Source: Lingula anatina
Taxonomy: Eukaryota; Animalia; Brachiopoda
Length of the DNA stretch: 64,000 nt
NCBI GenBank assembly: GCA_051362555.1
Contig: CM120642.1
Location: 6,386,001-6,450,000 of the forward strand
Direction: 5' to 3'
Shown piece by piece: positions 24,311-62,434 of this stretch (the stretch's first letter is position 1; each line of letters opens with the position of its first letter). The notes under the pieces were generated by a model. That model did no database searches, was not told the DNA's origin, and saw only the letters and a program-made list of their open reading frames with translations. A program made the position numbers and the translations under genes.

Positions 24311-25836
24311 TTAATTCATACAGATTTTTCTGTAAAGTAATTGGGCAATGACTTTACCTGTATCACCAACAAATGTTGCAGGACTATACCTCTTCTGTTT
24401 TGGACACAGGTAGTGGACAAGATCACACATTGTATCAGTCATAGGATATACAATGTGGAATGCATCAAAAACTTCCACATCCAGTTTCTTCATTTCTGTT
24501 CCCAGTATTTCATTGGTTGCTGATTTCATAAAATAATTGCTATCTTTTTTCCACATTCCACCTGCCTGTATGTTCAGGTAGATCAAGCGAAGTTTTGCCT
24601 GCTTGGGATTTCTTCTTATACTTCTAATGACATCAAAGATAATTCTGCTTTGATTTAAAATGAGGTGTCTTGCATTTCTTCGAGTCACATCCCATTGACC
24701 GAAACCTAGAACTATGACATCAGATGCAGACCATGTAGATCTTTACTTCAGGTGCTTTTGGAGATTTGTAGCAGCAACATGTGGATAATTCCCCCACATT
24801 GCTGCAATGTTCTTATTGTAGAAAAATAGTGTATCTGTAGTGCCATCGAAGAGATGTGGATGTTTCATGTTGAGTAAATGCATTAAATAGTAACTTATTG
24901 CTCTTATGTGGGAGTCCCCAACAAAAGAGATGCTGGATTTATTTTTTTTGACAATGTAGCAGTTCAGTTGGAGTCAAAAAAGGCAGCAAAAGGCCTGTTT
25001 GGGACCCCCATTGCCAGGTACCATTAACTTTCCACCAGCGACCCTGGAGGTACTCTGTTATATTCCTACTATATGTGTCAGCCTTAATGTTCAGTCTCTC
25101 CTTGGATCTTGGACATATATTGCTATACGTATATACTTATTTTTTTCTTTAATCTTCCTGGCCATGGGATGTTAATATTGTAATGATGCCTTTAGCCCTC
25201 AAAGTTAACAGACTCCAAGAAGACAGTGATGTTGACACATGTATGTATCCTTGGACAGTGAGCAGTGTAGGTGCCCTTGAAGTAGTCTTGGACAGGACAC
25301 CACATCCTCTCACCACCCATTATTGTGATTCTGAATCCACTCCCCCCAGTGGACATTGTACTTTGGCCATTCTGAACAAATTCAGTTATCCTAAAGATGA
25401 CAGAATTTGGAATGGGTAGTTTTCGGAATAACTGCACTTGATGGTGGTACTGCTTGGCATCAGACTTGTACTTGGAATAATCCAAGGGAGAACTTGTTAT
25501 ATCTGGTTCTTTTGTGGAGTTTGCTATGGTCCAGTAATGGTAAAGTTGCAACATTTCTGTTGAACCAAAACGTATGGGCTCTTCCATGAATCTGTCCTCT
25601 GGTTTATTGAAATTTATAGGTAGTAAGGCATACTTTTGTTCTGCCAGAAAAATCATACAAAATACAACAGCAACAATCAGTAAAACTTTGCAGTAAAAAA
25701 TATATTGAAGTAACCCACAAGTACGCTGTTCTGTAATACGTATCTGTACATTCATTCTTGTGTTGACAATAGAAAACAACATTTGAAGCCGCCTGGAAAA
25801 GTAATTTGACCACAGTCTGTCTTCATGAATAATCAT
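24311..25836 (-). pseudogene. NXPE/PC-esterase-like copy D, disrupted
   Basis: Full-length homolog with TAC>TAA at 25192, a small insertion near 25130 and an extra base in the T-run near 24945. Confidence 0.85.
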
Positions 25837-25930
25837 ATTTCCCTCTGTGACCAATGCCTATAAAATCAATGTAAATGGCTATATAATTTTTTATGACCCC
25901 ATGTAGTTTCAGTGAAAAAAGGATAAATTG

Positions 25931-41852: not shown

Positions 41853-42067
41853 TCATAATCCCCGCTGTATGGTTCTACCACGCATCTCTTCTATATATTC
41901 CTGCATCTTATACCAGCCATCAGGATCCTTTGTGTAGTATTCTTTGGGTGGTGGTCCCTCCATCAGACGCACGTGATAGCTACAGAATCTGAAGTTTAAC
42001 TTGGTGGGCCCCCGCTTCGTTTTACAGACGCCCTTAATCGACGATTGGCGCTTCATTACGGACTCGG
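41853..42067 (-). CDS. MRPL22: mitochondrial ribosomal protein L22 (uL22m), last coding exon
   Basis: After acceptor tttacag it encodes (A)ESVMKRQSSIKG...RFCSYHVRLMEGPPPKEYY...MQEYIEEMRGRTIQRGL*, matching the MRPL22 C-terminal pattern (VRL.EGPPP ... EY...R.R.I..L). Phase-compatible with exon 61765-61834. Confidence 0.85.
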
Positions 42068-42994
42068 CTGTAAAGAAATGACATCAGTTGCACTATTTAT
42101 ATTTTCATTATATGCGACGAATATCGTATAATATTTTGTGCAGACATTTTTATCAAAATTATCTAAATTCTACTCTTTAATACAGAATATGTCAAATGGA
42201 ATATGTCAAAAGGTACTCTTAACCTTATCATAAATCCATAGTTAAATTCATAATGTTTGGCCATTACTTTTAACAAAGACACAGAAAGCTTGAGATCTCG
42301 AAACTGTAAACAATTAACAGAAAAAATTAAACTGAAATCTATCGCAAAATCATTTTAATTGCATACAAATACTGCCAATTTCCTGGTAAAAAAGTAAAAT
42401 TTGCAGTTTTAAAAATATTCAGACTGACACATCACTATCAGCATTTGGTGAGATTTTTCAAGGCCTGTGCAAATACTTCCTCAGTTGTGCTAAAAGGGAC
42501 TTTTTGGGCTTTTAAACTAAACTAAACTGACCATGCAAGCAAATCTCTCCTGCCCCACAGATGACATATTGTTCATGCAAAGAGAATGGACTCTAGAGTA
42601 AATGTCCCCTTGGACAACTGACTGACCATGACATTGAAAATGACCATACAGGTCAATGCAGGCCTGACAGGGAACGGGCTGACCACATAAAAGAAATGGT
42701 TAGTCTTAAATTAAAGTTGAAAATCTCACATACTAAAAATATTAACAACTTATAGAAAGAAGAAAACTGCTTGCATTTATCAAAAAATTTTAGTATGCAT
42801 GTGTCAAGACTTCAGTTTTTTGGTCATTAATAAAAAATTGACACTGAATAAATAAATAAATAAATAAAAACAATTTTGTTTATGTTTTCTTTAAAACTGT
42901 AATCATTAAGTTTTTCTTTCATAAGAGAAATATCATTGCAATCACAAACCGACCAAAAAATGTGCTGCTTCATTTTTGTATTATGAATTGTATT

Positions 42995-43325
42995 TCACCA
43001 GGTGATAAAACTGTCACATCAACTTATTCAAACATGCCACTAGACAGGTGTCGTGATTTACCCGACTTAAAGCCAGTCAATCACAAGGCAGGTTTGATAA
43101 ATGGTTAACCAAATGACCTGTCACTGGACAATGCCACACAATGAGCTGTTTGTCGCCTCAGCCTGTGAAGTGTCACAAACTAGTTTCTGTCTGATTAGAC
43201 AACCAAGCTGACAGCCAATTAACAGCTGTATTTAAGTCCAGCCAAATCATGCTTAACCCATCACTTCTCAACTGCTCTTGAGATAAGTAACAGTATCTTC
43301 TGAGAAATTTTCTTGAGGAAGCAAC
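42995..43325 (+). promoter_or_regulatory. putative Pol II promoter of the 114-aa ORF (CCAAT, TATA, Inr, TGTCA cluster); repeated upstream of copies 2-4
   Basis: GCCAAT at 43214, TATTTAA at 43229 and pyrimidine-rich CCATCACTT about 30 bp further on. Equivalent TATA sites at 52101, 58784 and 60789 (TATATAA with TCAGTT at 60821). Confidence 0.6.
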
Positions 43326-43670
43326 ATGGAAGAGACATCCATCCCTCCTGTGTTTGTGTCAGATGAGCCAGAGCCTGATTTCTGCACAGCCTATCTGAAG
43401 ATGTACATGGGAAGGAGAGAGGCCACCAGACTGGAGATGCAGGTTTCTCGTCTGAAGAAACGCTATGCCAAGGCTGTGAAGCAACAGAATCGCAAGGCTC
43501 TGTATCAGTTACGAAACAGACTCCTGATCACTGACGGGGTATGGAAGATGTTCCAAGAGTATACCACGAGAAAAGAAGATGAGCTCAGTTATATTCCATT
43601 CTCTGAGAATGACAGCACAGAGCTCTTTTCTTCCTCTGGACTACTTCCCAATGCCAATGGTAGAAGTTGA
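43326..43670 (+). CDS. intronless 114-aa helical protein of unknown function, copy 1 (nested antisense in MRPL22 intron)
   Basis: Good Kozak context (GCAACATGG), upstream TATA/Inr, downstream AATAAA (~43951), higher GC than the flanks, and ORF intact in four copies. Confidence 0.7.
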   Translation: MEETSIPPVFVSDEPEPDFCTAYLKMYMGRREATRLEMQVSRLKKRYAKAVKQQNRKALYQLRNRLLITDGVWKMFQEYTTRKEDELSYIPFSENDSTELFSSSGLLPNANGRS

Positions 43671-44009
43671 GTGTGCTAAGCACAATGTGTCAACAAACAG
43701 CCCTTTTCAGGGCTCCTGGCTGAGGTCCATTTGTGGACCTGCACATCTTCCAAGAAAAGCTAAACCAGACAAGTTCAATACATAACTAAATACTGATTTA
43801 TCTTCGTTCCATAGAATTTAAAATATTTACCAATATTTTATAATAATACTTTTAGTTGAGGTAAAACACAAAAAAAAATGGGCAAAGTAGTGAGTACTCC
43901 AAGAATGCAGACATCTGCCAAGGTAAAATGTTAATAATAATAATAATAATAATAAATACCAAAAAAATACTAGAAGAGTTGAAGCTTGAGATCTTGAAAC
44001 TGTAAACAA

Positions 44010-46077
44010 CTAGAGGATCAGAGAGGCGATACCGCCTCCGAATATTGTACCACCAGCTGGAGTAAGCGCGATCGTATAGACCCCCCCCACACACAAAAAA
44101 GGGACACCACCACCATCAGTCTTGTGCTTGACAAGCTGTAAAAAATGCAATCAACAAGAATTCTCAAAATATGCAAAAATAGTATATAACTAAAAATGGT
44201 ACAATCAAAGTTCAGTTAGTAGTAAGGTAGGTCAAAGGTCAATTTCAAGGTCACAGTAAATTTCCAGTATATGACTTCCTATTCAAGTTCAATAGCAACT
44301 ATGGACACATCTCTGCCAGTTTTGGAGATAAAAGGGAACCAAAATTTGTAAACTTCAATTCATGATGAAAAGTAGGTCAAAGGTCAATTTCAAGGTCACA
44401 CTTAGATTGCCCCTAATGACTTCTATTCAAGTTCAATAGTTACTATGGGCATATTTTTGCCAGTTTTGGAGATAAAAGGGAACCAAAATTTGCAATGTTA
44501 AGTTCATGGTAAAAAGTAGGTCAAAGGTCAATTTTAAGGTCACAGTAAATTGACTTTAATGACTTTCTATTCAAGTTCAATGGTAACTATGGGCGTATCT
44601 CTGCCAGTTTTGAAAATAAAAGCATTAAAAAATTGCAAAGTTCAGTTTATGGTGTAAAGTAGGTCAAAGGTCAATTTCAAGGTCACATTTAGATTGCCAG
44701 TATATGACTTCCTATTCAAGTTCAATAGTAACCACAGACCTATCTCTGCTAGTTTTGGAGATAAAAGGGAACCAAAATTTGCAATGTTAAGTTCATGGTA
44801 AAAAGTAGGTCAAAGGTCAATTTTAAGGTCACAGTAAATTGACTTTAATGACTTCCTATTCAAATTCAAAAGTAACTATGGGCGTATCTCTGCCAGTTTT
44901 GAAAATAAAAGCATTAAAAAGTTGCAAAGTTCAGTTTATGGTGTAAAGTAGGTCAAAGGTCAATTTCAAGGTCATGTTTAGATTGCCAGTATATGACTTC
45001 CTATTCAAGTTCAATAGTAACTATGGACCTATCTCTGCCAGTTTTGGAGATAAAAGGGAAACAAAATTTGCAAAGTTCAATTCATGATGAAAAGGGACTA
45101 AATGTTATAATTTTGGAGTTACAATAATGTGCCATAAATTTCGTACAGAAAAAATTAATTAAAATAAAGAAAAGGTCATTTTGGTCAAAAATTCTTGAAA
45201 TGGGAGGTGCTCTGAAGTTCCAGATGTTCAAATGTGATGAAATTATGTCATTTTTGACCACAAGTTGTCTGCCTCGCCAAGCATTATGTTTTATTTTTCC
45301 GGAGTTCAAAATTTATTATCCATTACCGTACTGCACATTTTGCTTTCACCACCAATATGTACTTTTTGATACAGCGTAACTCGAAAACCGTATGGAATAC
45401 GAAAAACGGAGACCACCTCCAGTGTTGGGCTTTACATGCTCTACAAAATGCAAAAAAGAATGGGTCTCTAGCATTAACGGTTCCCGAATTAGAGACAGTT
45501 TTCATTTTGGTATCTTATGGCCGCTACTCCCGTGAAAATGCACCGATTGACCCCAAATTCACGGAGATGAAAGATGACCCGAAGGGTAACACTTTCCAGT
45601 AATATTATTGGTTAAGTCTGTGTGGTGTCTGAATAACATCGCAAATAATTTTTTTTTGTAAAAAAATTCGTTTTTTTGAAAATTTTGGCCCGTTTGGCCT
45701 TGAAATAAAGGTCAAAGGTCAAATCCAAGGGCATATTTGAAATCTACACATATGACTTTTGGAAAGCTGTCTGTAGAAATTTTTCCCATAATTCCTTCCG
45801 TAGGGTAGATAATTAGCATTTAATTTTGCCATTTTTGGACAAGGGTGCATTGCAATGAGTGCCACACCTAGACCCCAATACCGACAAAGCCCAAATTTTA
45901 CGTGAAACGAGTTGAGATTATAGGTGACCTAAATCCAAGAGATGGGTATGGGGGCCATTACCGTCTAGGAGGAGAAGCGGTAACGGTAACTTGTCGGCGG
46001 AGCTGCAAGGAACCGGCGGAACAATCTGGACGGGACTAAAACCATGTGTACCGCCAGCGCTAACGCTGGTGGTACAA
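44010..46077 (-). mobile_element. HINE family 1, full-length (~2.07 kb), ~6 units of ~146-bp array
   Basis: Same termini as 13777-15263. Inserted in AAACAA|TTAACAG with no TSD; empty sites are visible at ~42310 and ~59548. Confidence 0.85.
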
Positions 46078-47811
46078 TTAACAGAAAAAATTTAACTGAA
46101 ATCTAAAAATCCTTATCGGAAAATTATTTAAATTGAATACAAATACTAGCAATTTTCTGGTAAAAAAGTAAAGTTTGCAGTTTTGAAAATATTCCGAATG
46201 ACACATCACTATCAGCATTTTTTGAGATTTTTCAAGGTCTGTGCAAAGACTTCCTCAGTTGTGCTAAAAGGGACTTTTTGGGCTTTTAAACAACATTGAT
46301 AGTTGGAGGGAAAACTAATTCCTTTGCCTTGCTGCTGTATCCTGATGAAACCTCAGATCAACTTCATACTTATGTGCAGAATCAAGTCTCAGGCTCTTCA
46401 AAGGCTTCAGGTAGGATTTGGGTCATTTCCAGGATACTGGACTCTGGCTGTACAGGGACATGGTTCACATAAGAACCTAAGACTGAATGTCTTAGTTGAA
46501 ATATCATATACGACATATGACACGGCATGCTTGACAGGTGACACACATACACACAAGAAAAAACAAGGCAGCAAAGCTGTCAAATGTACAGACAAAAAGC
46601 AGGAAATAACTATGCACAAAATAGGCTACTGTCAATTCTGATGCAAAAGTACATTATGTTAAACTGTAAATTCAACATCAATTTTTAATTATGCTCAACA
46701 GGAAATACCAATGAAAGTAAAATGTGTAACAAGCATAAGGCTTCAGGCCCATGAGAGTTCAAGTTCACACTTTGAAAATGTATAACTTCCAGAAAAAGAA
46801 GCCAATTAGACTGCTTTTCCAACTCAGGCTGCATGCCGATTTTCGAACTTGACCTCCGTTTTAGTAAGATCGATTACTCCTGAGAGTTTCACGACAACAG
46901 GCCTATCGGTTTTCCTTGAAATGTGTTTACAGTGTTGCATATATGTTGAAAAGTGAAAGAAAAAAGCATAACTTCTACAATAATGGCCCGATCATCCTGT
47001 TTTTTGAACTTGACCTGGGTTTTATGAATATTCATCAGCTCTTTAAATATAAAGCCCAAAAGTAAAACTGCCTTCCACTTATTGTGTTTACAATAAAAGT
47101 GCAAGGTACATCTGTACATATTTACTGTACTGTTTGAGAACAGTAAGTGACATGGTTTTTCTTAAATGGTCATCATGGGAGCAGTGCCCAAAATAGTTTT
47201 TTTTCAAATTTTGACGCAATATTACATAATGTTTAACAGCATAATGACCATCAATTTTTAAGAATAAAATATTAGTATCATGGATATTCAGAAAATGTGA
47301 CTAGCAAAGGTCTTCAGGCCCATGGAACTTCAAAGCCACAACTTGAAAATGCCAAAATGTAAACAAGACAGCACTGTTCTGAAATGGGTTTATTTCCATT
47401 TTTAACAATTTTTAACATAAAACAAAATGAACAGTTTACTGCCATTTTTATATGATCAACTAAGAAAATTGATGAGATTGGAAAAATATCAATATAACAG
47501 TGTTAAATGTCCAATTTCCTCCATTCTGAGATTCTGAACATAGTGGATGATTGAATCTGACAAACTGCAATGATATGAGTTTATTTCCATTTTTGACACT
47601 TTATTACACAATACACGATAAAAAGTTTACCATCATTTTTACATAATCAACTAACAATGTTGTAAAGATGCAGGAAATGTCAAACAATCACTTTTACGTA
47701 TCTTATTAGTTTAATAATGAGACTGTTAACATGCCTAAGAATTGAATCTGAGGAAATGTAAAAAAACAGCACACCTTCTAAAATAATGGCACGATTATGC
47801 TGATTTACGTA

Positions 47812-49970
47812 CGGTAAAGTCTTGAAAATTTCGTCGCTTAAAAATTAATTAATATTTTTAATTGTGTAAATCCGACTAATTTTTCAAAATTACCTCCCCC
47901 CGACTCCTGGGTATGACGAAATTTTCAAAAATCCGGCCTTTGGGCTTTTATCTTTGACCCTCCTATATTGTGGGATATTTAAAACTACTTCCTAAGTCGT
48001 TTTCTGGTGGTTAATAATAATATATTTATTGCATCTCGATTAAGTTAAATTTAACTTACTGTACCCGAAAATGTGTTGAGAATTATCTTCTCGGTAAGAA
48101 ACATACCTCCTGATAGAGGAGAAGGATCAAGATAAGCTTAATTGCCTCCTTGCATTATAACCTGGCCGCGACATATTTAAAAAAATTATGCACTTGGCAA
48201 CGTTTGTTGCATGCAGGGCTTTTCCCAGGATTGAATGTCAGGCCTTCTAAAAGTACCATCTGTAACTTCCTAAAAATTTACAGGGAGTTAAAATAATTGC
48301 TCCCGCAGACGATCTTCCGCAATTTAAGTTTCTTGAACTTATATGAAAACTGAACGATCTCCCGATGATGATATGAAAATTGCCTTTTCGTCTCGCTCGG
48401 ATCGCGAACGATCTCCCTCTGACGATCTTACGCGAACAAAGTCCTGGCGATATATTACGCAAACGATTCTTCGCCGAAGATACATGTATGCCGTGAGCGG
48501 GGAAGGGGGGGGGGGGGGATAAAGATGAAATTAAAAATATATATTATTTATAATATTCAAAGGGGAGGGGGGGGGTTAAAATAATGATCTCCCGCTGACG
48601 ATCGTTTGCAAACTAAGTTCCTTGAACTAATATGAAAACTGCATTTTATTATTGCTTACATCGCGAACAATCTCCCGACGATGATATGAAAATTGCCTTT
48701 ACGTCAAGCTAGGATCGCGAACGATCTCCCTCTGATATGATCTTACGCGAACAAAGTCCTGAGGATATTACGCGAACGATTCTCCGCCGAATATATACCA
48801 TGAGCGGGGGAGGGGGGCTGTTTAAAGATAAAATGAAAAAGATATTTTTTAAATCCAAAGTGTGTGTGTCTGGGGTCTGGGGGGGGGGGGAGTGAAATAA
48901 TGATCTCTCGCTGACGATCTTCCGTTAACGAAGTTCCCTAAATCCCTTGAACTAATATAAAAATTGCATTTCATTCTTGCTTACATCGCAAACGATCCCG
49001 CGATGATTATCTTACGCGAACGATTCTCCGCCGAAGATATGCCATGAGCAGGGAAGGGGGGGGGGGTTTAAGATAAAATGAAAATATATATATTATTTAT
49101 TAAATTCAAAGGGGGGGGGGTTAGAATAGTGATCTCCCGCTGACGATCTTTTGCAAACTAAGTTCCTTGCAATAATTTGAAAATTGCATTTCATTCTTGC
49201 TTACATCGCGAACGATCTCCCGATGATGACATGAAAATTGCCTTTTCGTCTTGCTCGGATCGCAAACGATCTCCCGCTGATGATCTTACGCGAACGGAGT
49301 CTGCTATAAATATGAAAATTTTCTTCTTGTCTCGTTTGGATCGCGAACGATCTGTTGACAATATTACGCGAAAGATTCTCTGCTGAAGCTATGAAAATTG
49401 CCATCTCGTCCCATTCGCATTGCGAACGATCTCCATGGATGAGCCAGGTAATTGTTAAGTGGTCCTAAATTGAACATGGACATGAATAGAAGTGACGGGT
49501 ACATTTCCCTTCGAGATAATATCTTGATTTTTCATTGTGTCTTCCTCATTTAGGACAGCCGCCGATAACAATAACGGCGTTACAAATGACTTTTATTTGC
49601 CGGCTTGATAACGCACCTTGAGCCAGGTAATAGTAATGAAACTATTTAGACAAAAGGCCGATGTTCCCGCAATTAAGAACGGGGATTCACATCTTAACCA
49701 CTTATATTGTGAGTAACCGCTCGCAGGGGCGCACTATTGTTCCTATCTCCCATTGAGAGTGTTATCGGCAATGATATCCTGATCGTATCATTGTCTTGAA
49801 TCAACTGACGCATTACCTTCATGTTTGAGCTGGACAACGCGACCATATTTGGTGACGAACTTTTCAAAAATTATTGAGTACCTCATTTTCAAGGTCGACG
49901 AAGTTTTCAAGGGGAAAAAAATTACCTCGGCGGAAAATCGTCTGCCGACGAAATTTTCAAGACTTTACCG
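47812..49970. mobile_element. non-autonomous TIR element with TA target-site duplication (Tc1/mariner-like), internal complex tandem repeats
   Basis: TA-CGGTAAAGTCTTGAAAATTTCGTCG ... CGACGAAATTTTCAAGACTTTACCG-TA. The flanks rejoin to a HINE-2 repeat motif (GCTGATTT.CG..CT..ACCTGC). No transposase ORF. Confidence 0.8.
48295..49435. repeat. CpG-rich complex minisatellite (CGCGAACGATCTCCC / GACGATC units in ~250-300-bp blocks separated by G-tracts)
   Basis: The motif ACGATCT/ACGATTCT recurs many times, with G-runs at ~48500, 48560, 48805, 48880, 49050 and 49110. Confidence 0.8.
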
Positions 49971-51696
49971 TACTCAACCTGCATTTTAGTAAAATTGACC
50001 ACTCCTGTGACTTTCATGACAATTGGCCTATCTGTTTTTCTTATATTGTGTTTACAGTGTTGCATATATGCTGAAAAAAGAAAAAAAAGCATAACTACTA
50101 AAATAGTGGCCCGATCATGCCAATTTTCGAACTTGACCTGCGTTTTAGTAAGATCAATTTTTCCTGTGAGTTTCATGACAACAGGCCTATCGGTTTTTGT
50201 TGAAATGTGTTTACAGTGTTGCATATATGCTGAAAAGTGAAAAAACAGCATAACTTCTACAATAATGGCCCGATCATGCTGATTTTCGAACTTGACCTGC
50301 ATTTTATGAATATTCATCAGCTTTGTTAATATAAAGCCAAAAAGTAAAACTGCCTTCCACTTATCGTGTTTACAAGGAAAGTGCACGGCAACGACGGCGA
50401 CGGCAACGACAGTCGCAGGTGATGGCAATATGTACAGACACATCTATATATATTTACTGTACTGTTTGAGAACATGGTTTTTCTTAAATGGTCATCATGG
50501 GAGCAGTGCCCAAAATAGGTTTTTTTCAAATTTTGATGCAATATTACATAATGTTTAACAGCATGATGACCATCAATTGTTAAGAATAAAATATTAGTAT
50601 CATGGATATTCAGAAAATGTGACTAGCAAAGGTCTTCAGGCCCATGGAACTTCAAAGTCACAACTTGAAAATGCCAAAATGTAAACAAGACAGCACTGTT
50701 CTGAAATGTTTTTTTTTTTCATTTTTAACAATTTTTAACATAAAACAAAATTAACAGTTTACTGCCATTTTTATATTATCAACTAAGAAAATTGACGAGA
50801 TGGGAAAAATATCAACAGAGCAGTGTTAAATGTCCAATTTCTTCCATTCTGAGATTCTGAACATAATGAATGATTGAATCTGACAAACTGCAATGATATG
50901 AGTTTATTTCCATTTTTGAAACTTTATTACACAATACACGATAACAAGTTTACCATCATTTTTACAAAATCAACTAACAATGTTGTAAAGATGCAGGAAA
51001 TGTCAAACAAACACTTTTACGTATCTTATTAGTTTAATAATGAGACTGTTAACATGCCTAAGAATTGAATCTGAGGAAATGTGAAAAATATGCTGAAAAG
51101 TGAAAAAACAGCATAACTTCTACAATAATGGCCCGATCATGCTGATTTTCGAACTTGACCTGCGTTTTATGAATATTCATCAGCTCTGTAAATATAAAGC
51201 CAAAAAGTAAAACTGCCCTCCACTTATCGTGTTTACAAGGAAAGTGCACGGCGCCGGCATCGCCATCGCCATCGGCATCGGCGACGGCGACGACAGACGC
51301 AGGTGATGGCAATATGTACAGACACATCTGTGTCTGTACATAAAAAAAACTCTCAGGTGACAATGTCACTAAACTGACCACGCAAGCAAATCTCTCCTGC
51401 CCCACAGATGACATATTGTTCATGCAAAGAGAATGGACTCTAGAGTAAATGTCCCCTTGGTCAACAGAATGACCATGACACTAAAAATGACTAAACAGGT
51501 CAATGCAGGCCTGACAGGGAACAGGCTGACCACATAAAAAAAAAAGGTTAGTCTCAAATTAAAGTTGAAAATCTCACATACTAAAAATATAAACAACTTA
51601 AAGAAAGAAGAAAATTGCTTGCATTTATCAAAAAATTTTAGCATGCATGTGTCAAGACTTCAGTTTTTTGGTCATTAATAAAAAATTGACACTGAA

Positions 51697-51735
<39 letters not shown>

Positions 51736-52197
51736 AAACAATTTTGCTTATGTTTTCTTTAAAACTGTAATCATTAAGTTTTTCTTTCATAAGAGAAATA
51801 TCACTGCAATCACAAACTGACCAAAAAATGTACTGCTTCATTTTTGTATTATGAATTGTTTTTCACCAGGTGATAAAACTGTCACATCAACTTATTCAAA
51901 CATGCCACTAGACAGGTGTAGTGATTTACCTGGCTTAAATAAAGCTAGTCAATCACCTGGCAGGTTAGATAAATGGTTAACCAAATGACCTGTCACTGGA
52001 CAATGCCACACAATGAGCTGTTTGTCGCCTCAGCCTGTGAAGTGTCACAAACTAGTTTCTGTCTGATTAGACAACCAAACTGACAGCCAATTAACAGCTG
52101 TATTTAAGTCCAGCCAAATCATGCTCAACCCATCACTTCTCAACTGCTCTTGAGATAAGTAACAGTATCTTCTGAGAAATTTTCTTGAGGAAGCAAC

Positions 52198-52542
52198 ATG
52201 GAAGAGACATCCATCCCTCCTGTGTTTGTGTCAGATGAGCCAGAGCCTGATTTCTGCACAGCCTATCTGAAGATGTACATGGGAAGCAGAGAGGCCACCA
52301 GATTGGAGATGCAGGTTTCTCGTCTGAAGAAACGCTATGCCAAGGCTGTGAAGCAACAGAATCGCAAGGCTCTGTATCAGTTACGAAACAGACTCCTGAT
52401 CACTGACGGGGTATGGAAGATGTTCCAGGAGTATACCACGAGAAAAGAAGATGAGCTCAGTTATATTCCATTCTCTGAGAATGACAGCACAGAGCTCTTT
52501 TCTTCCTCTGGACTACTTCCCAATGCCAATGGTAGAAGTTGA
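52198..52542 (+). CDS. intronless 114-aa protein of unknown function, copy 2
   Basis: One amino-acid difference from copy 1 plus synonymous changes; promoter conserved. Confidence 0.7.
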   Translation: MEETSIPPVFVSDEPEPDFCTAYLKMYMGSREATRLEMQVSRLKKRYAKAVKQQNRKALYQLRNRLLITDGVWKMFQEYTTRKEDELSYIPFSENDSTELFSSSGLLPNANGRS

Positions 52543-52801
52543 GTGTGCTAAGCACAATGTGTCAACAAACAGCCCTTTTCAGGGCTCCTGGCTGAGGTCC
52601 ATTTGTGGACCTGCACATCTTCCAAGAAAAGCTAAACCAGACAAGTTCAATACATAACTAAATACTGATTTATCTTCGTTCCATAGAATTTAAAATATTT
52701 ACCAATATTTTATAATAATACTTTTAGTTGAGGTAAAACACAAAAAAAAATGGGCAAAGTAGTGAGTACTCCAAGAATGCAGACATCTGCCAAGGTAAAA
52801 T

Positions 52802-52836
<35 letters not shown>

Positions 52837-52887
52837 CCAAAAAAATACTAGAAGAGTTGAAGCTTGAGATCTCGAAACTGTAAACAA

Positions 52888-55800
52888 CTAGAGGATCAGA
52901 GAGGTGATACCGCCTCCGAATATTGTACCACCAGCTGGAGTAAGCGCGATCGTATAGACCCCCCCCACACACAAAAAAGGGACACCACCACCATCAGTCT
53001 TGTGCTTGACAAGCTGTAAAAAATGCAATCAACAAGAATTCTCAAAATATGCAAAAATAGTATATAACAAAAATGGTACAATCAAAGTTCAGTTAGTAGT
53101 AAGGTAGGTCAAAGGTCAATTTCAAGGTCACAGTAAATTTCCAGTATATGACTTCCTATTCAAGTTCAATAGCAACTATGGACACATCTCTGCCAGTTTT
53201 GGAGATAAAAGGGAACCAAAATTTGTAAACTTTAATTCATGATGAAAAGTAGGTCAAAGGTCAATTTCAAGGTCACACTTAGATTGCCCCTAATGACTTC
53301 TATTCAAGTTCAATAGTTACTATGGGCATATTTTTGCCAGTTTTGGAGATAAAAGGGAACCAAAATTTGCAATGTTAAGTTCATGGTAAAAAGTAGGTCA
53401 AAGGTCAATTTTAAGGTCACAGTAAATTGACTTTAATGACTTTCTATTCAAGTTCAATGGTAACTATGGGCGTATCTCTGCCAGTTTTGAAAATAAAAGC
53501 ATTAAAAAATTGCAAAGTTCAGTTTATGGTGTAAAGTAGGTCAAAGGTCAATTTCAAGGTCACATTTAGATTGCCAGTATATGACTTCCTATTCAAGTTC
53601 AATAGTAACCACAGACCTATCTCTGCTAGTTTTGGAGATAAAAGGGAACCAAAATTTGCAATGTTAAGTTCATGGTAAAAAGTAGGTCAAAGGTCAATTT
53701 TAAGGTCACAGTAAATTGACTTTAATGACTTCCTATTCAAATTCAAAAGTAACTATGGGCGTATCTCTGCCAGTTTTGAAAATAAAAGTATTAAAAAGTT
53801 GCAAAGTTCAGTTTATGGTGTAAAGTACGTCAAAGGTCAATTTCAAGGTCACATTTAGATTGCCAGTATATGACTTCCTATTCAAGTTCAACTAGAGGAT
53901 CAGAGAGGCGATACCGCCTCCGAATATTGTACCACCAGCTGGAGCAAGCGCATTCGTATAGACCCCCACATACACAAAATAAGGGACACAGCCACCAGTT
54001 TTGTGCTTGACAAGCTGTAAAAATGCAATCAACAAGAATTTTTAAACTATTGCAAAAAATATATATGGTACAATCAAATTTAAGTTCTTCGTAAGGTAGG
54101 TCAAGGGTCAATTTCAAGGTCACAGTAAATTGCCAGTATATGACTTCCTATTCAAGTTCAAGAGTAACTATGGACCTATCTCTGTCAAGTTTGAAGTTAA
54201 AAGAGAAAGAAATTAGCAGAGTTCAGTTCATGATAAAAAGTAGGTCAAAGGTCAATTTCAAGGTCACATTTAGATTGCCAGTATATGACTTTCTATTCAA
54301 GTTCAATAGTAACTATGGACCTATCTCTGCCAGTTTTGGAGATAAAAGGGAAGCAAAATTTGCAAAGTTCAGTTTATGGTGAAAAGTAGGACAAAGGTCA
54401 ATTTTAATGTCACATTTATAATGCTAGTATATGACTTCCTATTCAAGTTCAATAGTAACTATGGACCTATCTCTGCCAGTTTTGGAGATAAAAGGAAAGC
54501 AAAATATGCAAAATTCAGTTCATGGTGTAAAGTAGGTCAAAGGTCAATTTTAAGGTCACATTTAGATTGCCAGTATATGACTTCCTATTCAAGTTCAATA
54601 GTAACTATGGACCTATCTCTGCCAGTTTTGGAGATAAAAGGAAAGCAAAATTTGCAAAGTTCAGTTCATGGTGAAAAGTAGGTCAAAGGTCAATTTCAAG
54701 GTCACATTTAGATTGCCAGTATATGACTTCCTATTCAAGTTCAATAGTAACTATGGACCTATCTCTGCCAGTTTTGGAGATAAAAGGGAAGCAAAATTCA
54801 GTTCATGGTGTAAAGTAGGTCAAAGGTCAATTTTAAGGTCACATTTAGATTGCCAGTATATGACTTCCTTTTCAAGTTCAATAGTAACTATGGACCTATC
54901 TCTGCCAGTTTTGGAGATAAAAGGAAAGCAAAATTTGCAAAGTTCAGTTCATGGTGAAAAGTAGGTCAAAGGTCAATTTCAAGGTCACATTTAGATTGCC
55001 AGTATATGACTTCCTATTCAAGTTCAATAGTAACTATGGACCTATCTCTGCCAGTTTTGGAGATAAAAGGAAAGCAAAATTTGCAAAATTCAGTTCATGG
55101 TGTAAAGTAGGTCAAAGGTCAATTTTAAGGTCACATTTAGATTGCCAGTATATGACTTCCTATTCAAGTTCAATAGTAACTATGGACCTATCTCTGCCAG
55201 TTTTGGAGATAAAAGGGAAGCAAATTTTGCAAAGTTCAGTTTATGGTGAAAAGTAGGTCAAAGGTCAATTTTAAGGTCACATTTAGATTGCCAGTATATG
55301 ACTTCCTATTCAAGTTCAATAGTAACTATGGACCTATCTCTGCCAGTTTTGGAGATAAAAGGGAAGAAAAATTTGCAAAGTTCAGTTCATGGTGAAAAGT
55401 AGGTCAAAGGTCACTTTCAAGGTCATAGTAAGATTGCCAGTATATGACTTCCTATTCAACTTCAATAGTAACTATGGACCTATCTCTGCCAGTTTTGGAG
55501 ATATAAGGGACCAAATGTTATAATTTTGGAGTTACCATAATGTGCCTTACATTTCGTACAGAAAAAATTAATTAAAATAAAGAAAATGTCATTTTGGTCA
55601 AAATTCTTGAAATAGGAGGTGCTCTGAAGTTTCAGAAGTTCAAATTTGATGAAATAATGTCATTTTTGAACACAAGTTGTCTGCTTTGCCAAGCCTTATG
55701 TTTTATTTTTCCAGAGTTCAAAATTTATTATCCATTACCGTACTGCACATTTTGCTTTTACCACCAATATGTACTTTTTGATACAGCGTAACTCGAAAAC

Positions 55801-57542
55801 CGTATGGAATACAAAAAAACCGAGACCACCCCCAGTGTTGGGCTTTACATGCTCTACAAAATGCAAAAAAGAATGGGTCTCTAGCATTAACGGTTCCCGA
55901 ATTAGAGACAGTTTTCAGTTTCGGTATCTTATGGCCGCTACTCCCGTGAAAATGCACCGATTGACCCCAAATTCATGGAGATGAAAGATGACCTGAAGGG
56001 TAACACTTTCCAATAATATTATTGGTTAAGTCTGTGTGGTGTCTGAATAACAGGGCAAAAAAAATTTTTTTCGTAAAAAATTTCATTTTTTTGAAAATTT
56101 TGGCCCATTTGACCTTGAAGTAAAGGTCAAAGGTCAAATCCAAGGGTATATTTGAAATCTACACATATGACTTTTGGAAAGCTGTCTATAGAAATTTTTC
56201 CCATAACTCCTTCCGTAGGGTAGATAATTAGCATTTAATTTTGCCATTTTTAGACAAGGGTGCATTGCAATGAGTGCCACACCCAGACCCCAATACCGAC
56301 AAAGCCCAAATTTTACGTGGAACGAGTTGAGATTATAGGTGACCTAAATCCATGAGATGGGTACGGGGGCCCTTACCGTCTAGGAGGAGAAGCGGTAACG
56401 GTAGCCGTCCGGCGGAGCCGGCGGAACGATCCGGACGGGACCGAAACCATGTGTACCGCCAGCGCTAACGCTGGTGGTACAATAATAACTATGGACCTAT
56501 CTCTGCCAGTTTTGGAGATAAAAGGGAAACAAAATTTGCAAAGTTCAATTCATGATGAAAAGGGACTAAATGTTATAATTTTGGAGTTACAATAATGTGC
56601 CATAAATTTCGTACAGAAAAAATTAATTAAAATAAAGAAAAGGTCATTTTGGTCAAAAATTCTTGAAATGGGAGGTGCTCTGAAGTTCCAGATGTTCAAA
56701 TGTGATGAAATTATGTCATTTTTGACCACAAGTTGTCTGCCTCGCCAAGCATTATGTTTTATTTTTCCGGAGTTCAAAATTTATTATCCATTACCGTACT
56801 GCACATTTTGCTTTCACCACCAATATGTACTTTTTGATACAGCGTAACTCGAAAACCGTATGGAATACGAAAAACGGAGACCACCTCCAGTGTTGGGCTT
56901 TACATGCTCTACAAAATGCAAAAAAGAATGGGTCTCTAGCATTAACGGTTCCCGAATTAGAGACAGTTTTCATTTTGGTATCTTATGGCCGCTACTCCCG
57001 TGAAAATGCACCGATTGACCCCAAATTCACGGAGATGAAAGATGACCCGAAGGGTAACACTTTCCAGTAATATTATTGGTTAAGTCTGTGTGGTGTCTGA
57101 ATAACATCGCAAATAATTTTTTTTTGTAAAAAAATTCGTTTTTTTGAAAATTTTGGCCCGTTTGGCCTTGAAATAAAGGTCAAAGGTCAAATCCAAGGGC
57201 ATATTTGAAATCTACACATGACTTTTGGAAAGCTGTCTGTAGAAATTTTTCCCATAATTCCTTCCGTAGGGTAGATAATTAGCATTTAATTTTGCCATTT
57301 TTGGACAAGGGTGCATTGCAATGAGTGCCACACCTAGACCCCAATACCGACAAAGCCCAAATTTTACGTGAAACGAGTTGAGATTATAGGTGACCTAAAT
57401 CCAAGAGATGGGTATGGGGGCCATTACCGTCTAGGAGGAGAAGCGGTAACGGTAACTTGTCGGCGGAGCTGCAGGAACCGGCGGAACAATCTGGACGGGA
57501 CTAAAACCATGTGTACCGCCAGCGCTAACGCTGGTGGTACAA
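52888..57542 (-). mobile_element. HINE family 1 copy at the same site as 44010-46077 (co-duplicated), interrupted by a nested HINE
   Basis: Identical junctions AAACAA|CTAGAGG and GGTACAA|TTAACAG; sequence near-identical to 44010-46077. Confidence 0.85.
53892..56482 (-). mobile_element. nested HINE family 1 (related subfamily) with ~10 homogeneous 146-bp units
   Basis: Has its own CTAGAGG... and ...GCTGGTGGTACAA termini inside a host repeat unit (CAAGTTCAA|TA.TAACTATGG). AGGTCAAAGG-type anchors at 54242, 54388, 54534, 54680, 54817, 54963, 55109, 55255 and 55401. Confidence 0.85.
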
Positions 57543-58379
57543 TTAACAGAAACTTTAACTGAAATCTAAAAATCCTTATCGGAAAATTATTTAAATTGAA
57601 TACAAATACTAGCAATTTTCTGGTAAAAAAGTAAAGTTTGCAGTTTTGAAAATATTCCGAATGACACATCACTATCAGCATTTTTTGATATTTTTCAAGG
57701 TCTGTGCAAAGACTTCCTCAGTTGTGCTAAAAGGGACTTTTTGGGCTTTTAAACAACATTGATAGTTGGAGGGAAAACTAATTCCTTTGCCTTGCTACCG
57801 TATCCTGATGAAACCTCAGATCAACTTCATACTTATGTGCAGAATCAAGTCTCAGGCTCTTCAAAGGCTTCAGGTAGGATTTGGGTCATTTCCAGGATAC
57901 TGGACTCTGGCTGTACAGGGACATGGTTCACATAAGAACCTAAGACTGAATGTCTTAGTTGAAATATCATATACGACATATGACACGGCATGCTTGACAG
58001 GTGACACACATACACACAAGAAAAAAAAAAAAACTCTCAGGTGACAATGTCACTAAACTGACCACGCAAGCAAATCTCTCCTGCCCCACAGATGACATAT
58101 TGTTCATGCAAAGAGAATGGACTCTAGAGTAAATGTCCCCTTGGTCAACAGAATGACCATGACACTAAAAATGACTAAACAGGTCAATGCAGGCCTGACA
58201 GGGAACAGGCTGACCACATAAAAAAAAAAGGTTAGTCTCAAATTAAAGTTGAAAATCTCACATACTAAAAATATAAACAACTTAAAGAAAGAAGAAAATT
58301 GCTTGCATTTATCAAAAATTTTAGCATGCATGTGTCAAGACTTCAGTTTTTTGGTCATTAATAAAAAATTGACACTGAA

Positions 58380-58418
<39 letters not shown>

Positions 58419-58880
58419 AAACAATTTTGCTTATGTTTTCTTTAAAACTGTAATCATTAAGTTTTTCTTTCATAAGAGAAATATCACTGCAATCACAAAC
58501 TGACCAAAAAATGTACTGCTTCATTTTTGTATTATGAATTGTTTTTCACCAGGTGATAAAACTGTCACATCAACTTATTCAAACATGCCACTAGACAGGT
58601 GTAGTGATTTACCTGGCTTAAATAAAGCTAGTCAATCACCTGGCAGGTTAGATAAATGGTTAACCAAATGACCTGTCACTGGACAATGCCACACAATGAG
58701 CTGTTTGTCGCCTCAGCCTGTGAAGTGTCACAAACTAGTTTCTGTCTGATTAGACAACCAAACTGACAGCCAATTAACAGCTGTATTTAAGTCCAGCCAA
58801 ATCATGCTCAACCCATCACTTCTCAACTGCTCTTGAGATAAGTAACAGTATCTTCTGAGAAATTTTCTTGAGGAAGCAAC

Positions 58881-59225
58881 ATGGAAGAGACATCCATCCC
58901 TCCTGTGTTTGTGTCAGATGAGCCAGAGCCTGATTTCCGCACAGCCTATCTGAAGATGTACATGGGAAGCAGAGAGGCCACCAGATTGGAGATGCAGGTT
59001 TCTCGTCTGAAGAAACGCTATGCCAAGGCTGTGAAGCAACAGAATCGCAAGGCTCTGTACCAGTTACGAAACAGACTCCTGATCACTGACGGGGTATGGA
59101 AGATGTTCCAGGAGTATACCACAAGAAAAGAAGATGAGCTCAGTTATATTCCATTCTCTGAGAATGACAGCACAGAGCTCTTTTCTTCCTCTGGACTACT
59201 TCCCAATGCCAATGGTAGAAGTTGA
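58881..59225 (+). CDS. intronless 114-aa protein of unknown function, copy 3
   Basis: Intact ORF (C20R relative to copy 2), promoter conserved, downstream HINE site empty. Confidence 0.7.
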   Translation: MEETSIPPVFVSDEPEPDFRTAYLKMYMGSREATRLEMQVSRLKKRYAKAVKQQNRKALYQLRNRLLITDGVWKMFQEYTTRKEDELSYIPFSENDSTELFSSSGLLPNANGRS

Positions 59226-60873
59226 GTGTGCTAAGCAAAATGTGTCAACAAACAGCCCTTTTCAGGGCTCCTGGCTGAGGTCCATTTGTGGACCTACACA
59301 TCTTCCAAGAAAAGCTAAACCAGACAAGTTCAATACATAACTTAATACTGATTAATCTTCATTCCATAGAAATTAAAATATTTATCAATATTCTGTAATA
59401 ATACTTTTAGTTGAGGTAAAAAAAAAATGGGCAAAGTAGTGAGCACTCCAAGAATGCAGACATCTGCCAAGGTAAAATGTAAATTATAATAATAAATACC
59501 AAAAAAATACTAGAAGAGTTGAAGCTGGAGATCTCGAAACTGTAAACAATTAACAGAAAAATTTAACTGAAATCTAAAATTCCTTATCAGAAAATTATTT
59601 AAATTGCATACAAATACTAGCAATTTTCTGGTAAAAAATAAAGTTTGCAGTTTTGAAAATATTCGAATGACACATCACTATCAGCATTTTTTGAGATTTT
59701 TCAAGGTCTGTGCAAATACTTCCTCAGTTGTGCTAAAAGGGACTTTTTGGGCTTTTAAACAACCTTGATAGTTGGAGGGGAAAACTAATTTCTTTGCCTT
59801 GCTACTGTATCCTGATGAAACCTCAGATCAACTTCATACTTATGTGCAGAATATTCAGAATGACACATCACTATCAGCATTTTTTGAGATTTTTCAAGGT
59901 CTGTGCAAAGACTTCCTCAGTTGTGCTAAAGGGGACTTTTTGGGCTTTTAAACAACCTTGATAGTTGGAGGGAAAACTAATTCCTTTGCCTTGCTACCGT
60001 ATCCTGATGAAACCTCAGATCAACTTCATACTTATGTGCAGAATCAAGTCTCAGGCTCTTCAAAGGCTTCAGGTAGGATTTGGGTCATTTCCAGGATACT
60101 GGACTCTGGCTGTACAGGGACATGGTTCACATAAGAACCTAAGACTGAATGTCTTAGTTGAAAGGTGGCACAGCATGCTTGACAGGTGACACACATACAC
60201 ACAAGAAAAAAAACAACTCTCAGGTGACAATGTCACTAAACTGACCATGCAAGCAAATCTCTCCTGCCCCACAGATGACATATTGTTCATGCAAAGAGAA
60301 TGGACTCTAGAGTAAATGTCCCCTTGGTCAACAGAATGACCATGACACTAAAAATGACCAAACAGGTCAATGCAGGCCTGACAGGGAACAGGCTGACCAC
60401 ATAAAAAAAAAAGGTTAGTCTCAAATTAAAGTTGAAAATCTCACATACTAAGGCTTCATTCACATGCAATGTCTATTTTCTAAATTCTATTTTCTATTCG
60501 CGGTATGCCTTATGATCACGGTCTGTGCCCTTAATATCCCGCGGCGTAATTACTGGCAGCGCGAGCCAGTTACTATAAGTTACTTATTCAAACATGCCAC
60601 TAGACAGGTGTAGTGATTTACCTGACTTAAAGCCAGTCAATCACCTGGCAGGTTTGATAAATGGTTAACCAAATGACCTGTCACTGGACAATGCCTCACA
60701 ATGACCTGTTTGTCACCTCAGCCTGTGAAGTGTCACAAACTAGTTTCTGTCTGATAAGACACCCAAGCTGACAGCCAATTAACAGATGTATATAAGTCCA
60801 GCCAAACCATGCTTAACCCATCAGTTCTCAACTGCCCTTGGGATAAGTAACAGTATCTTCTTGAGGAAGCAAC

Positions 60874-61218
60874 ATGGAAGAGACATCCATCCCTCCTGTG
60901 TTTGTGTCAGATGAGCCAGAGCCTGATTTCTGCACAGCCTATCTGAAGATGTACATGGGAAGCAGAGAGGCAACCAGATTGGAGATGCAGGTTTCTCGTC
61001 TGAAGAAATGCTATGCCAAAGCTGTGAAGCAACAGAATCGCAAGACTATGTATCAGTTACGAAACAGACTCCTGATCACTGACGGGGTATGGAAGATGTT
61101 CCAGGAGTATACCACGAGAAAAGAAGATGAGCTCAGTTATATTCCATTCTCTGAGAATGACAGCACAGAGCTCTTTTCTTCCTCTGGACTACTTCCCAAT
61201 GCCAATGGTAGAACTTGA
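60874..61218 (+). CDS. intronless 114-aa protein of unknown function, copy 4 (most divergent)
   Basis: Intact ORF with 4 amino-acid differences from copy 2; consensus TATATAA and TCAGTT Inr. Confidence 0.7.
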   Translation: MEETSIPPVFVSDEPEPDFCTAYLKMYMGSREATRLEMQVSRLKKCYAKAVKQQNRKTMYQLRNRLLITDGVWKMFQEYTTRKEDELSYIPFSENDSTELFSSSGLLPNANGRT

Positions 61219-61764
61219 AGTTGAGTGTGCTAAGCACAATGTGTCAACAAACAGCCCTTTTCAGGGCTCCTGGCTGAGGTCCATTTGTGGACCTACACAT
61301 CTTCCAAGAAAAGCTAAACCAGACAAGTTCAATACATAACTAAATACTGATTAATCTTCGTTCCATAGAATTTAAAATATTTACCAATATTCTGTAATAA
61401 TGCTTTTAGTTGAGGTAAAAAAAATGGGCAAAGTAGTGAACACTCCAAAAATGCAGACATCTCCCAAGGTAAAATTTAAATAATAATAATGATAATTACC
61501 AAAAAAATACTAAAAGAGTTGGATTCACTTGCGATTGCTATAACTTCTTTCCCTTCGCTAAAATGTTGGTCCATAAAATTTTATAAACATCTGTGAATTT
61601 TTTTTCAGCCATCTCAACACTTACAAACCAATGCTGATGAAAAAGTAACCTCCTTCATTGCTGGAGCAAAGTATATATTTTGTTTTTAGTAACTTATTAT
61701 TGGGCAAGAACTAAGAGGGTAACTGCAAACACCTGAAAGTCACACCTCTCCTCAGTGTACTTAC

Positions 61765-61834
61765 CAACCCAGAGATTGGACTTATACTCCACATTATGTT
61801 CTTTTACTGCCTTTTCTTGGGCTTCAAGAAGCAC
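61765..61834 (-). CDS. MRPL22: MRPL22 internal exon
   Basis: AG...GTAAG-bounded 70-nt exon encoding VLLEAQEKAVKEHNVEYKSNLWV, a hallmark MRPL22 motif. Confidence 0.9.
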
Positions 61835-62356
61835 CTACAATAATTTGAATAATCATTTATTATCACTTTATACATTGAAACAAATTCCAGTTTGCATTAA
61901 ATGAAGATGTTTACGCTTATCCACGTCGTATATCAGGTGAAAAATTATATCACCACATTCCTGAACAACTGAATCTTTGTTGTATGTTCTGGTGACACAA
62001 CACAATCTTTTTTTTCTACCAGGTGAAGCACTAGAATCTTTGTTTTGTGGTTACTCGATTCACCTTTCCATAGATAATGATGCACATGCACGGTTAACCC
62101 ATTTCTGCTGGTCGTGGTTGCCTGATGACTAATTGACTGGAAATGGCAGTGCAACAATCTACACCAGAATGCAACATGCATAACAAAGTTGGTGCATGCA
62201 TGTCATTATCTGGTGAATGACACTACAGAAGGCAAATGACACTACAGAAACTTTGTTTAAGGCCTGCTGAATGACACAAATAAACAGTTTATTTTGGGGT
62301 GAAGTCTCTTTTTCCAATCTAGCATATCTAAAAAAATATGACCATAAAAAACTCAC

Positions 62357-62434
62357 ATCTTTCACAATCTGACCACCTTCCCTTTTGTAAAATGTTAACT
62401 GCTTCAAGGCATCATCAATACTCATCCCGCGAAT
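62357..62434 (-). CDS. MRPL22: MRPL22 internal exon
   Basis: AG...GTGAG-bounded 78-nt exon encoding IRGMSIDDALKQLTFYKREGGQIVKD (uL22 IRGMSID.A..QL.F motif). Upstream canonical exons were not found in the window. Confidence 0.9.

Follow-up and report, generated by a model that had tools for sequence, protein, structure and literature searches.

The DNA considered here (the window) is a stretch of 64,000 nucleotides (nt) from the brachiopod Lingula anatina (GenBank assembly GCA_051362555.1, contig CM120642.1, positions 6,386,001 to 6,450,000). Inside the last intron of the mitochondrial ribosomal-protein gene MRPL22, and antisense to it, the window holds four tandem copies of a small intronless gene. 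The gene array is real, and it would operate in the manner of replication-dependent histone genes, to which it does not itself belong. The four copies are protein-coding genes whose messages, judging from the sequence, are probably ended in the histone manner by SLBP and the U7 snRNP, in a predicted form with a double hairpin. Behind every copy stand two hairpins and a purine-rich signal that resemble those of histone genes, and the message is therefore likely to be tail-less.

Hairpins and purine-rich element behind each copy

The four open reading frames (ORFs), which are free of indels, and the elements that follow them are listed here; the last element resembles the histone downstream element (HDE) of histone genes.

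43326..43670, + strand: ORF copy 1, 114 amino acids (family profile E 4.9e-11)
52198..52542, + strand: ORF copy 2, 114 amino acids (ORF list, family profile)
58881..59225, + strand: ORF copy 3, 114 amino acids (ORF list, family profile)
60874..61218, + strand: ORF copy 4, 114 amino acids, with four private amino acid changes including R46C at a family-invariant site
43699..43714, + strand: hairpin 1 of copy 1, with a 6-bp stem, UUUC loop and G-C at stem position 2; predicted SLBP site
52571..52586, + strand: hairpin 1 of copy 2
59254..59269, + strand: hairpin 1 of copy 3
61253..61268, + strand: hairpin 1 of copy 4, identical in DNA run X10 and matched by a distant paralogue
43724..43739, + strand: hairpin 2 of copy 1, with a 6-7-bp stem (other copies at 52596-52611, 59279-59294 and 61278-61293)
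43750..43759, + strand: purine-rich HDE-like element CCAAGAAAAG of copy 1 (other copies at 52622, 59305 and 61304)

The order behind each stop codon is hairpin 1 (AGCCCT-TTTC-AGGGCT), 9 nt, hairpin 2 (GGTCCA-TTTG-TGGACC), 10 nt, and then CCAAGAAAAG. In all four copies hairpin 1 combines a 6-bp stem, G-C at its second position, with a 4-nt loop that has U at position 3, and it lies 28-34 nt past the stop; the accessible part of bioRxiv 10.64898/2026.10.14.759114 gives as criteria a stem-loop whose second stem pair is G-C, whose third loop base is U and which lies 25-60 nt from the stop. A loose definition of the histone hairpin, applied to both strands of the 64 kb, found exactly four sites, and these are the four hairpin-1 sites (pattern search: 4 matches against a shuffle mean of 0.02). 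When the 150 nt behind the stop were shuffled, such a hairpin arose in 4 of 20000 shuffles, the four copies being counted as one event. Hairpin 2 agrees at 13 of 16 positions with the Drosophila H3 stem-loop as it appears in the accessible part of PMC5435866.

Contigs from four other DNA runs were compared with the window, and three of these runs (X10, X4 and X2, all under the same species label) covered the gene. The unique flank of X10 has 37 differences from the window in 465 nt (~8% divergence), whereas the 61-nt segment that runs from hairpin 1 up to and including the purine-rich element has a single one (p 0.049). Hairpin 1 is identical in X10, and the single change in hairpin 2 falls on its closing pair. 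The copies themselves show 0-2 differences in the first 95 nt past the stop and, for five of the six pairs, 11-13 in the next 180 nt.

A distant paralogue is present as a contig in all three runs. It matches the window over 50 nt of the coding core and over 29 nt that correspond to hairpin 1 and the start of hairpin 2, the rest being unmatched. If its last aligned letters are taken to be those of the window, its 30-nt loose end completes a 6-bp hairpin 2 stem with other pairs and another loop, followed by TCCTCCCAGAAA. Taken together, the X10, paralogue and copy comparisons indicate that hairpin 1 is kept in sequence and hairpin 2 in its stem only.

Homologous loci in metagenome contigs were two in number, L001 and L002, of which L002 stops short of its stop codon. 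L001, from another animal, carries a 98-amino-acid ORF in a 1507-nt tandem unit with a stem-loop 20 nt past the stop. This stem-loop (positions 812-857) reaches 40.2 bits with the Rfam histone model RF00032 (E 2.5e-8) and passes the cut-off of 34, as one of the two loci obtained; a near-identical purine-rich element lies 3' of it. In the alignment, the canonical stem-loop of L001 and its downstream element coincide with hairpin 2 of the window and its element.

With replication-dependent histone genes, whose reference machinery comprises the RF00032 stem-loop, the HDE, SLBP, U7 snRNP and CPSF73, the array shares the lack of introns, a short leader and tandem organization. It also shares the hairpin of 6-bp stem and 4-nt loop in which stem position 2 is G-C and loop position 3 is U, the purine-rich element that follows, and a homologue (L001) above the Rfam cut-off. 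Unlike histone genes, it specifies a product with neither a histone fold nor an H1 winged helix (no histone family in Pfam to E 10; a two-helix model), and it has two serial hairpins, of which the canonical-loop one precedes the purine-rich element by 35 nt and the degenerate one by 10 nt. The window hairpins stay under the Rfam cut-off, and histone-type processing and S-phase timing are putative.

Coding constraint and reality of the copies

The copies are 97-99% alike in pairwise comparison, differ at 3-9 coding positions per pair and carry different insertions. Twelve codons vary among them, six synonymously and six non-synonymously. The original prediction, an earlier reading made from the sequence, had pointed to several synonymous coding differences; this holds for six codons, but its list left out the six non-synonymous ones, and a share of 6 in 12 is by itself weak evidence of constraint (p 0.03-0.07). 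Four amino acid changes are private to copy 4, one of them at R46, a residue invariant in the family.

A single X10 contig spans the ORF, with 29 differences, 20 of them within the ORF and 5 of these carrying the letters of copies 1-3. Compared with copy 2, the ORF shows 12 synonymous and 3 conservative non-synonymous changes, which correspond to a ratio of non-synonymous to synonymous rates (dN/dS) of 0.06-0.08 (p 2e-6 to 2e-5); the contig may be collapsed from several copies, and the ratio still stands. The protein of the four ORFs is under purifying selection. The proposal of a real, constrained, multicopy intronless gene was consequently borne out by this ratio and by the family matches given below.

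Runs X2 and X4, which come from two studies, each hold three distinct versions of the 3' flank. Since this exceeds what two alleles can supply, multiple copies exist outside this assembly. Contig depth is no measure of copy number, and it is the presence of multiple copies, not the figure four, that is independently supported. Furthermore, an X10 contig joins the end of the unit to an MRPL22 exon, and the array locus therefore predates the split from X10. Run X11, from another organism, gave zero coverage of the gene at 80% likeness and is uninformative.

With regard to the samples themselves, several exon positions of MRPL22 (region 61765-62434 and the last exon) are changed relative to the window in RNA runs X18 and X20, a number of them at the start of the last exon. 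These two runs and X10, all under the same species label, possibly represent a distinct population or a cryptic species.

A far-diverged member of an unnamed spiralian family

Although the gene had been described as an orphan, this was wrong. A word search with the single sequence gave no relative (none of 3 candidates), but an index-free search returned four proteins (E 2e-4 to 1e-3), and a profile built from them gathered 290 matches at E <= 0.001 among 2262 candidates. Among the 120 of the 290 matches that were listed, the named members come from Mya, Patella, Littorina, Nucella, Mytilus, Mactra, Dreissena, Lamellibrachia and Tubulanus, that is, from molluscs, annelids and one nemertean (examples are Mya MAR_014607, Patella SNE40_012698, Lamellibrachia LSAT2_008627 and Tubulanus LOC141898434); 27 longer matches add Capitella, Ostrea and Magallana. 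The names given to these proteins are all uninformative. The mollusc-family motif put forward in the original prediction, 'Y.LR.RL...EGV..M+.EY...+.DEL', is indeed present in the family.

When a profile was made from 116 members (P0011-P0126), leaving aside the window protein and the seed matches, the window protein scored 39.0 bits with it, while controls (1000 shuffles and the reversed sequence) reach at most 6.6. Among 1223 peptides of the window, the family profile scores the four ORFs only. The window protein shares with the family R46/Y47, Y60-L-R63, G71, E78-Y79, the K83-x-D-E motif and a basic hairpin core, as well as the tandem organization seen in L001 and in Mya models with repeated domains. 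It retains 7 of 17 near-invariant columns (those conserved in at least 90% of 75 members), the other 10 being changed. Its charges are +11 in the core, -6 in the acidic N-terminus, a stretch that sets it apart from the family, and -4 in the tail, whereas the family tail has a median charge of -16 and stands at -5 or lower in 69 of 75 members. In a tree of 44 rows the protein sits on a very long, saturated branch that makes its placement impossible. On sequence grounds, we regard the window protein as a far-diverged member of this unnamed family.

The AlphaFold model has two helices (residues 19-53 and 56-89), with 63 residues at a predicted confidence (pLDDT) of at least 90, and the fold as modelled is a generic antiparallel helical hairpin. 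Combining AlphaFold with Foldseek, as had been suggested, thus yielded the two-helix hairpin but no match at E <= 0.001 among PDB and viral structures, where every PDB row had E > 0.7. In the ESM Atlas nothing reached 0.9 for the window protein or for member P0050, the best value of 0.84 belonging to an unnamed mollusc cluster. The window protein has a weak Pfam match to RVT_N (E 0.055, under the cut-off), and none of 76 family members reaches a meaningful Pfam family. TBCA, the best shared Pfam match (11 of 76, E 0.0023), was rejected as a coiled-coil effect, and CENP-U, the best PDB sequence match (E 0.087), was not accepted. No function could be drawn from the 27 longer matches, which have repeated domains or partners that are unrelated from case to case, probably fused gene models.

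In two scans, none of 64 and none of 59 pattern matches in viral contigs was a relative, nor was any of 14 in prokaryote genomes, and PHROGs gave no match with the 22 members tried. A search of open-access full text, with subscription journals and bioRxiv supplements outside its scope, yielded no account of the family or of U7 clients other than histones in spiralians.

Two further observations concern the family. The Mya arenaria models P0127, P0128 and P0010 contain two to about ten near-identical domain repeats and are probably tandem genes fused by annotation. P0139-P0146 form a distant branch (E 8e-7 to 2e-4) with a long low-complexity insertion between the helices.

Promoter, polyadenylation signals and expression

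A promoter is predicted in front of each copy, from sequence only:

43229..43265, + strand: TATA-like box and initiator (Inr)-like site of copy 1, predicted promoter (same at 52101, 58784 and 60789)

Copies 1-3 have TATTTAAG as their TATA-like box, copy 4 has TATATAAG, and the Inr-like site follows ~30-34 nt further on. A TATA/Inr pair at each copy, as originally proposed, is therefore predicted in four of four, with different TATA letters in copy 4. The predicted leader of 54-66 nt is free of ATG, and the coding sequence is uninterrupted.

The AATAAA proposed downstream of copies 1-3 is present, 265-285 nt past the stop, where it terminates an (AAT)n run; within 400 nt of the stop of copy 4 there is none. 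Its use as the main end is unsupported because the conserved histone-type 3' element lies far closer to the stop. A stem-loop near the stop together with a distal AATAAA in one gene (copies 1-3) recalls H2A.X (H2AFX), for which the accessible parts of PMC4604434 and PMC7807067 describe dual stem-loop and poly(A) ends. Unlike this case, H2A.X is a histone with a single canonical stem-loop, and here the AATAAA sits in a microsatellite and its use is putative.

RNA reads were taken from four runs of three studies (one PolyA, two oligo-dT and one unspecified), 6-30% of each being read, and were aligned to copy 4 with a likeness threshold of 92%, loose enough to let in reads from any of the four copies. 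Three runs had a depth of 0 over the ORF and the fourth never exceeded 1, while the adjacent MRPL22 exon reached 33-107. A search of the run index found no RNA run holding the gene. Such scarcity in mostly poly(A)-selected RNA is compatible with a message that is tail-less or restricted to a stage.

Two observations were made upstream of the copies. A short repeat at 60452-60581 replaces ~300 nt upstream of copy 4; in each of the four RNA runs, numerous other transcripts contribute reads to it on either strand. At 58524-58784, the 260 nt before the TATA of copy 3, there are three TGACAG and three CAGGTG motifs (4 and 0 of 20000 shuffles, the motifs having been picked post hoc); TGACAG is presumably a TALE-homeodomain site. 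This lead is weak because L001 has one of each only.

Alternative explanations

Several observations weigh against an ending of the histone type. The RF00032 model has no match in the whole window at E <= 10, and a 201-nt scan of copy 3 gives 12.0 bits over model positions 7-20, under the cut-off of 34; on sequence grounds, the window copies should not be filed as members of RF00032. Hairpin 1 opens with an A-U pair, has non-canonical flanks and lies 35 nt before the purine-rich element, and the accessible part of PMC1635294 presents the distance from stem-loop to HDE as critical. Hairpin 2 lies at 10 nt, within the ~10-20 nt expected between an SLBP-bound stem-loop and its HDE, but has a reversed closing pair that is lost in X10, and hairpin 2 of the paralogue has a non-canonical loop. 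Only three loci (the array, the paralogue and L001) have 3' ends that can be read independently. Many family members come from short Logan/ENA contigs, which are perhaps assemblies of poly(A) transcripts. Moreover, the window protein may not do the job of the family, since 10 of the 17 near-invariant columns differ and the long acidic tail is missing. Finally, the scarce reads fit silence equally well, since no transcript of the gene was seen in the 6-30% read of each of these runs, whose tissue and stage are unlabelled.

A first rival is a real gene, restricted to a stage or to stress, whose message is polyadenylated in the ordinary way at the AATAAA. Its hairpins would come down from a histone-type ancestor and serve now as an internal element of the 3' untranslated region, bound by SLBP for storage or translation, or for stability, and not cleaved through U7. 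The AATAAA in copies 1-3, hairpins under the Rfam cut-off, the 35 nt between the canonical-loop hairpin and the purine-rich element, and a polyadenylated H2A.X form with an internal stem-loop (in the accessible part of PMC4604434) would all suit it. However, the AATAAA arises where an (AAT)n run ends, and within 400 nt of its stop copy 4 lacks it. L001 and the paralogue, moreover, retain the purine-rich element with its 10-nt spacing, which would be difficult to account for if U7 did not pair there. We consider this explanation unlikely, though it deserves to be taken seriously. That the array is instead a selfish or decaying repeat, either an accessory ORF that belongs to a transposon or virus, or a silent array whose copies are alike through recent duplication, appears improbable. 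The repeat-rich setting, the near absence of RNA reads in four runs, the weak RVT_N match, the very long tree branch and the altered invariant arginine of copy 4 are set against a dN/dS of 0.06-0.08 and the unit end beside an MRPL22 exon in a sample ~8% diverged. Furthermore, there is no inverted repeat of at least 60 nt, no target-site duplication evident by eye at the edges of the array, no long ORF, transposase or reverse transcriptase in the unit (Helitron-type ends lying outside the test), and no relative in viral contigs, prokaryote genomes, PHROGs or viral structures. The possibility of a transposon accessory ORF, which the original prediction had itself named as a refutation, gained no support from the checks of terminal repeats, target-site duplications, reverse transcriptase and viral relatives.

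An assembly artefact of one locus, the other refutation named there, is hardly credible: the copies are 97-99% alike and contigs of other runs do not span the array, but the insertions differ, each pair shows 3-9 coding differences, and the three flank versions in each of X2 and X4 speak against it. Equally little can be said for the proposal that the protein is a membrane-remodelling subunit of the ESCRT-III/Snf7 type, which we hold to be very improbable. The protein does share with the alpha1-alpha2 segment of Snf7/CHMP4 a two-helix antiparallel hairpin of similar length, and Snf7/CHMP4 hairpins score Z 10.3-10.6 against the model. These values lie within 1 Z of those of SMC coils, designed proteins and F-BAR domains, at 8-14% identity, in a wide structural search where a Z under ~13 denotes a common arrangement according to the tool. 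Snf7 thus ties with dozens of unrelated hairpins, sequence similarity is lacking, Foldseek finds nothing at E <= 0.001, Pfam gives no Snf7 match to E 10 for the four copies, and the model has two helices only, the further helices of ESCRT-III being missing.

Proposed mechanism and significance

If the messages are ended by SLBP and U7, RNA polymerase II would start at the TATA/Inr and produce a short unspliced RNA antisense to MRPL22. SLBP would then bind hairpin 1, the hairpin constrained in sequence. U7 would pair with the purine-rich element and direct a cut at a fixed distance, just behind hairpin 2; cleavage that keeps a constant spacing to the HDE is described in the accessible part of PMC7026596. 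The product would be a tail-less mRNA of ~0.5 kb that ends in two hairpins. Because its stem alone is kept, hairpin 2 may be a folded spacer and 3' cap. In this serial arrangement the SLBP site would be set back from the 3' end, which might uncouple the message from decay at the end of S phase. Read-through to the distal AATAAA may generate a minor polyadenylated form, as in H2A.X. Tandem copies, as in histone genes, could deliver a burst of product in fast-dividing cells such as those of cleavage embryos. This product would be a basic helical hairpin (net +11) with an acidic arm, acting as a nuclear adaptor on chromatin or nucleic acid; to see in it a chromatin-bound adaptor that dividing cells produce is guesswork based on charge and co-regulation, and doubtful.

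More broadly, we tentatively suggest that spiralians may send a large non-histone family through the histone mRNA pathway, that this lineage may do so with two serial hairpins, and that the product may be a chromatin component supplied along with histones in early embryos. If true, a conserved non-histone client in a large animal clade would break the histone-only view of the pathway, such genes would be under-counted in every poly(A)-selected transcriptome, and an unknown protein would be needed in step with histones. As a natural experiment, the double hairpin would also bear on two questions: what spacing U7 cleavage obeys, and whether SLBP needs its site at the very end of the message. Lopez and Samuelsson reportedly described, in 2008, a few non-histone stem-loop genes in other taxa, which would lessen the uniqueness of the case. 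The accessible parts of PMC13525598, PMC5011920 and bioRxiv 10.64898/2026.08.17.745202 add no non-histone client.

Host intron, array structure and neighbouring genes

The following features define the array and its host:

42286..61521, + strand: four-unit tandem array, ~2.0 kb per unit (self-alignment)
42068..61764, - strand: 19,697-nt last intron of MRPL22, in which the array lies (splice sites, RNA reads)
41853..42067, - strand: last coding exon of MRPL22 (uL22m match)
61765..61834, - strand: MRPL22 exon 5' of the host intron (next exon 62357-62434)
44007..46073, no strand assigned: repeat element that contains a satellite of 144-146 bp, inserted at the junction of units 1 and 2

MRPL22 was identified by the match of its last exon to uL22m (E 5.7e-5), and RNA reads that connect 61765 to this exon reveal the spliced message. 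The array occupies the host intron except for ~460 nt. The original placement of four intact small ORFs antisense inside a 19.7-kb MRPL22 intron agrees with these data, as does their assignment to a duplicated unit. Self-alignment resolved head-to-tail units at 42286-44012, 46074-46566 plus 51342-52890, 57539-59552 and 59546-61521. Repeats interrupt two of the four units, and unit 2 is split by a 4.8-kb repeat block.

The non-coding satellite element is present at the junctions after units 1 and 2, so that the same junction point was hit twice. A larger nested version extends over 52885-57538, and a further copy lies at 13773-15265. We take the element to be reminiscent of non-autonomous elements of the Helentron type.

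A second tandem array lies on the - strand at 17600-25900, with a period of ~2.43 kb. Its intronless ORF of 513 amino acids has a predicted membrane anchor and no Pfam match at E <= 0.05; it is reminiscent of proteins of the NXPE/SGNH type. One copy is intact (19424-20965), and the others, 93-97% alike, are broken or partial. The last coding exon of an otopetrin gene (38385-39377, + strand, Pfam E 2.9e-55) is convergent with MRPL22.

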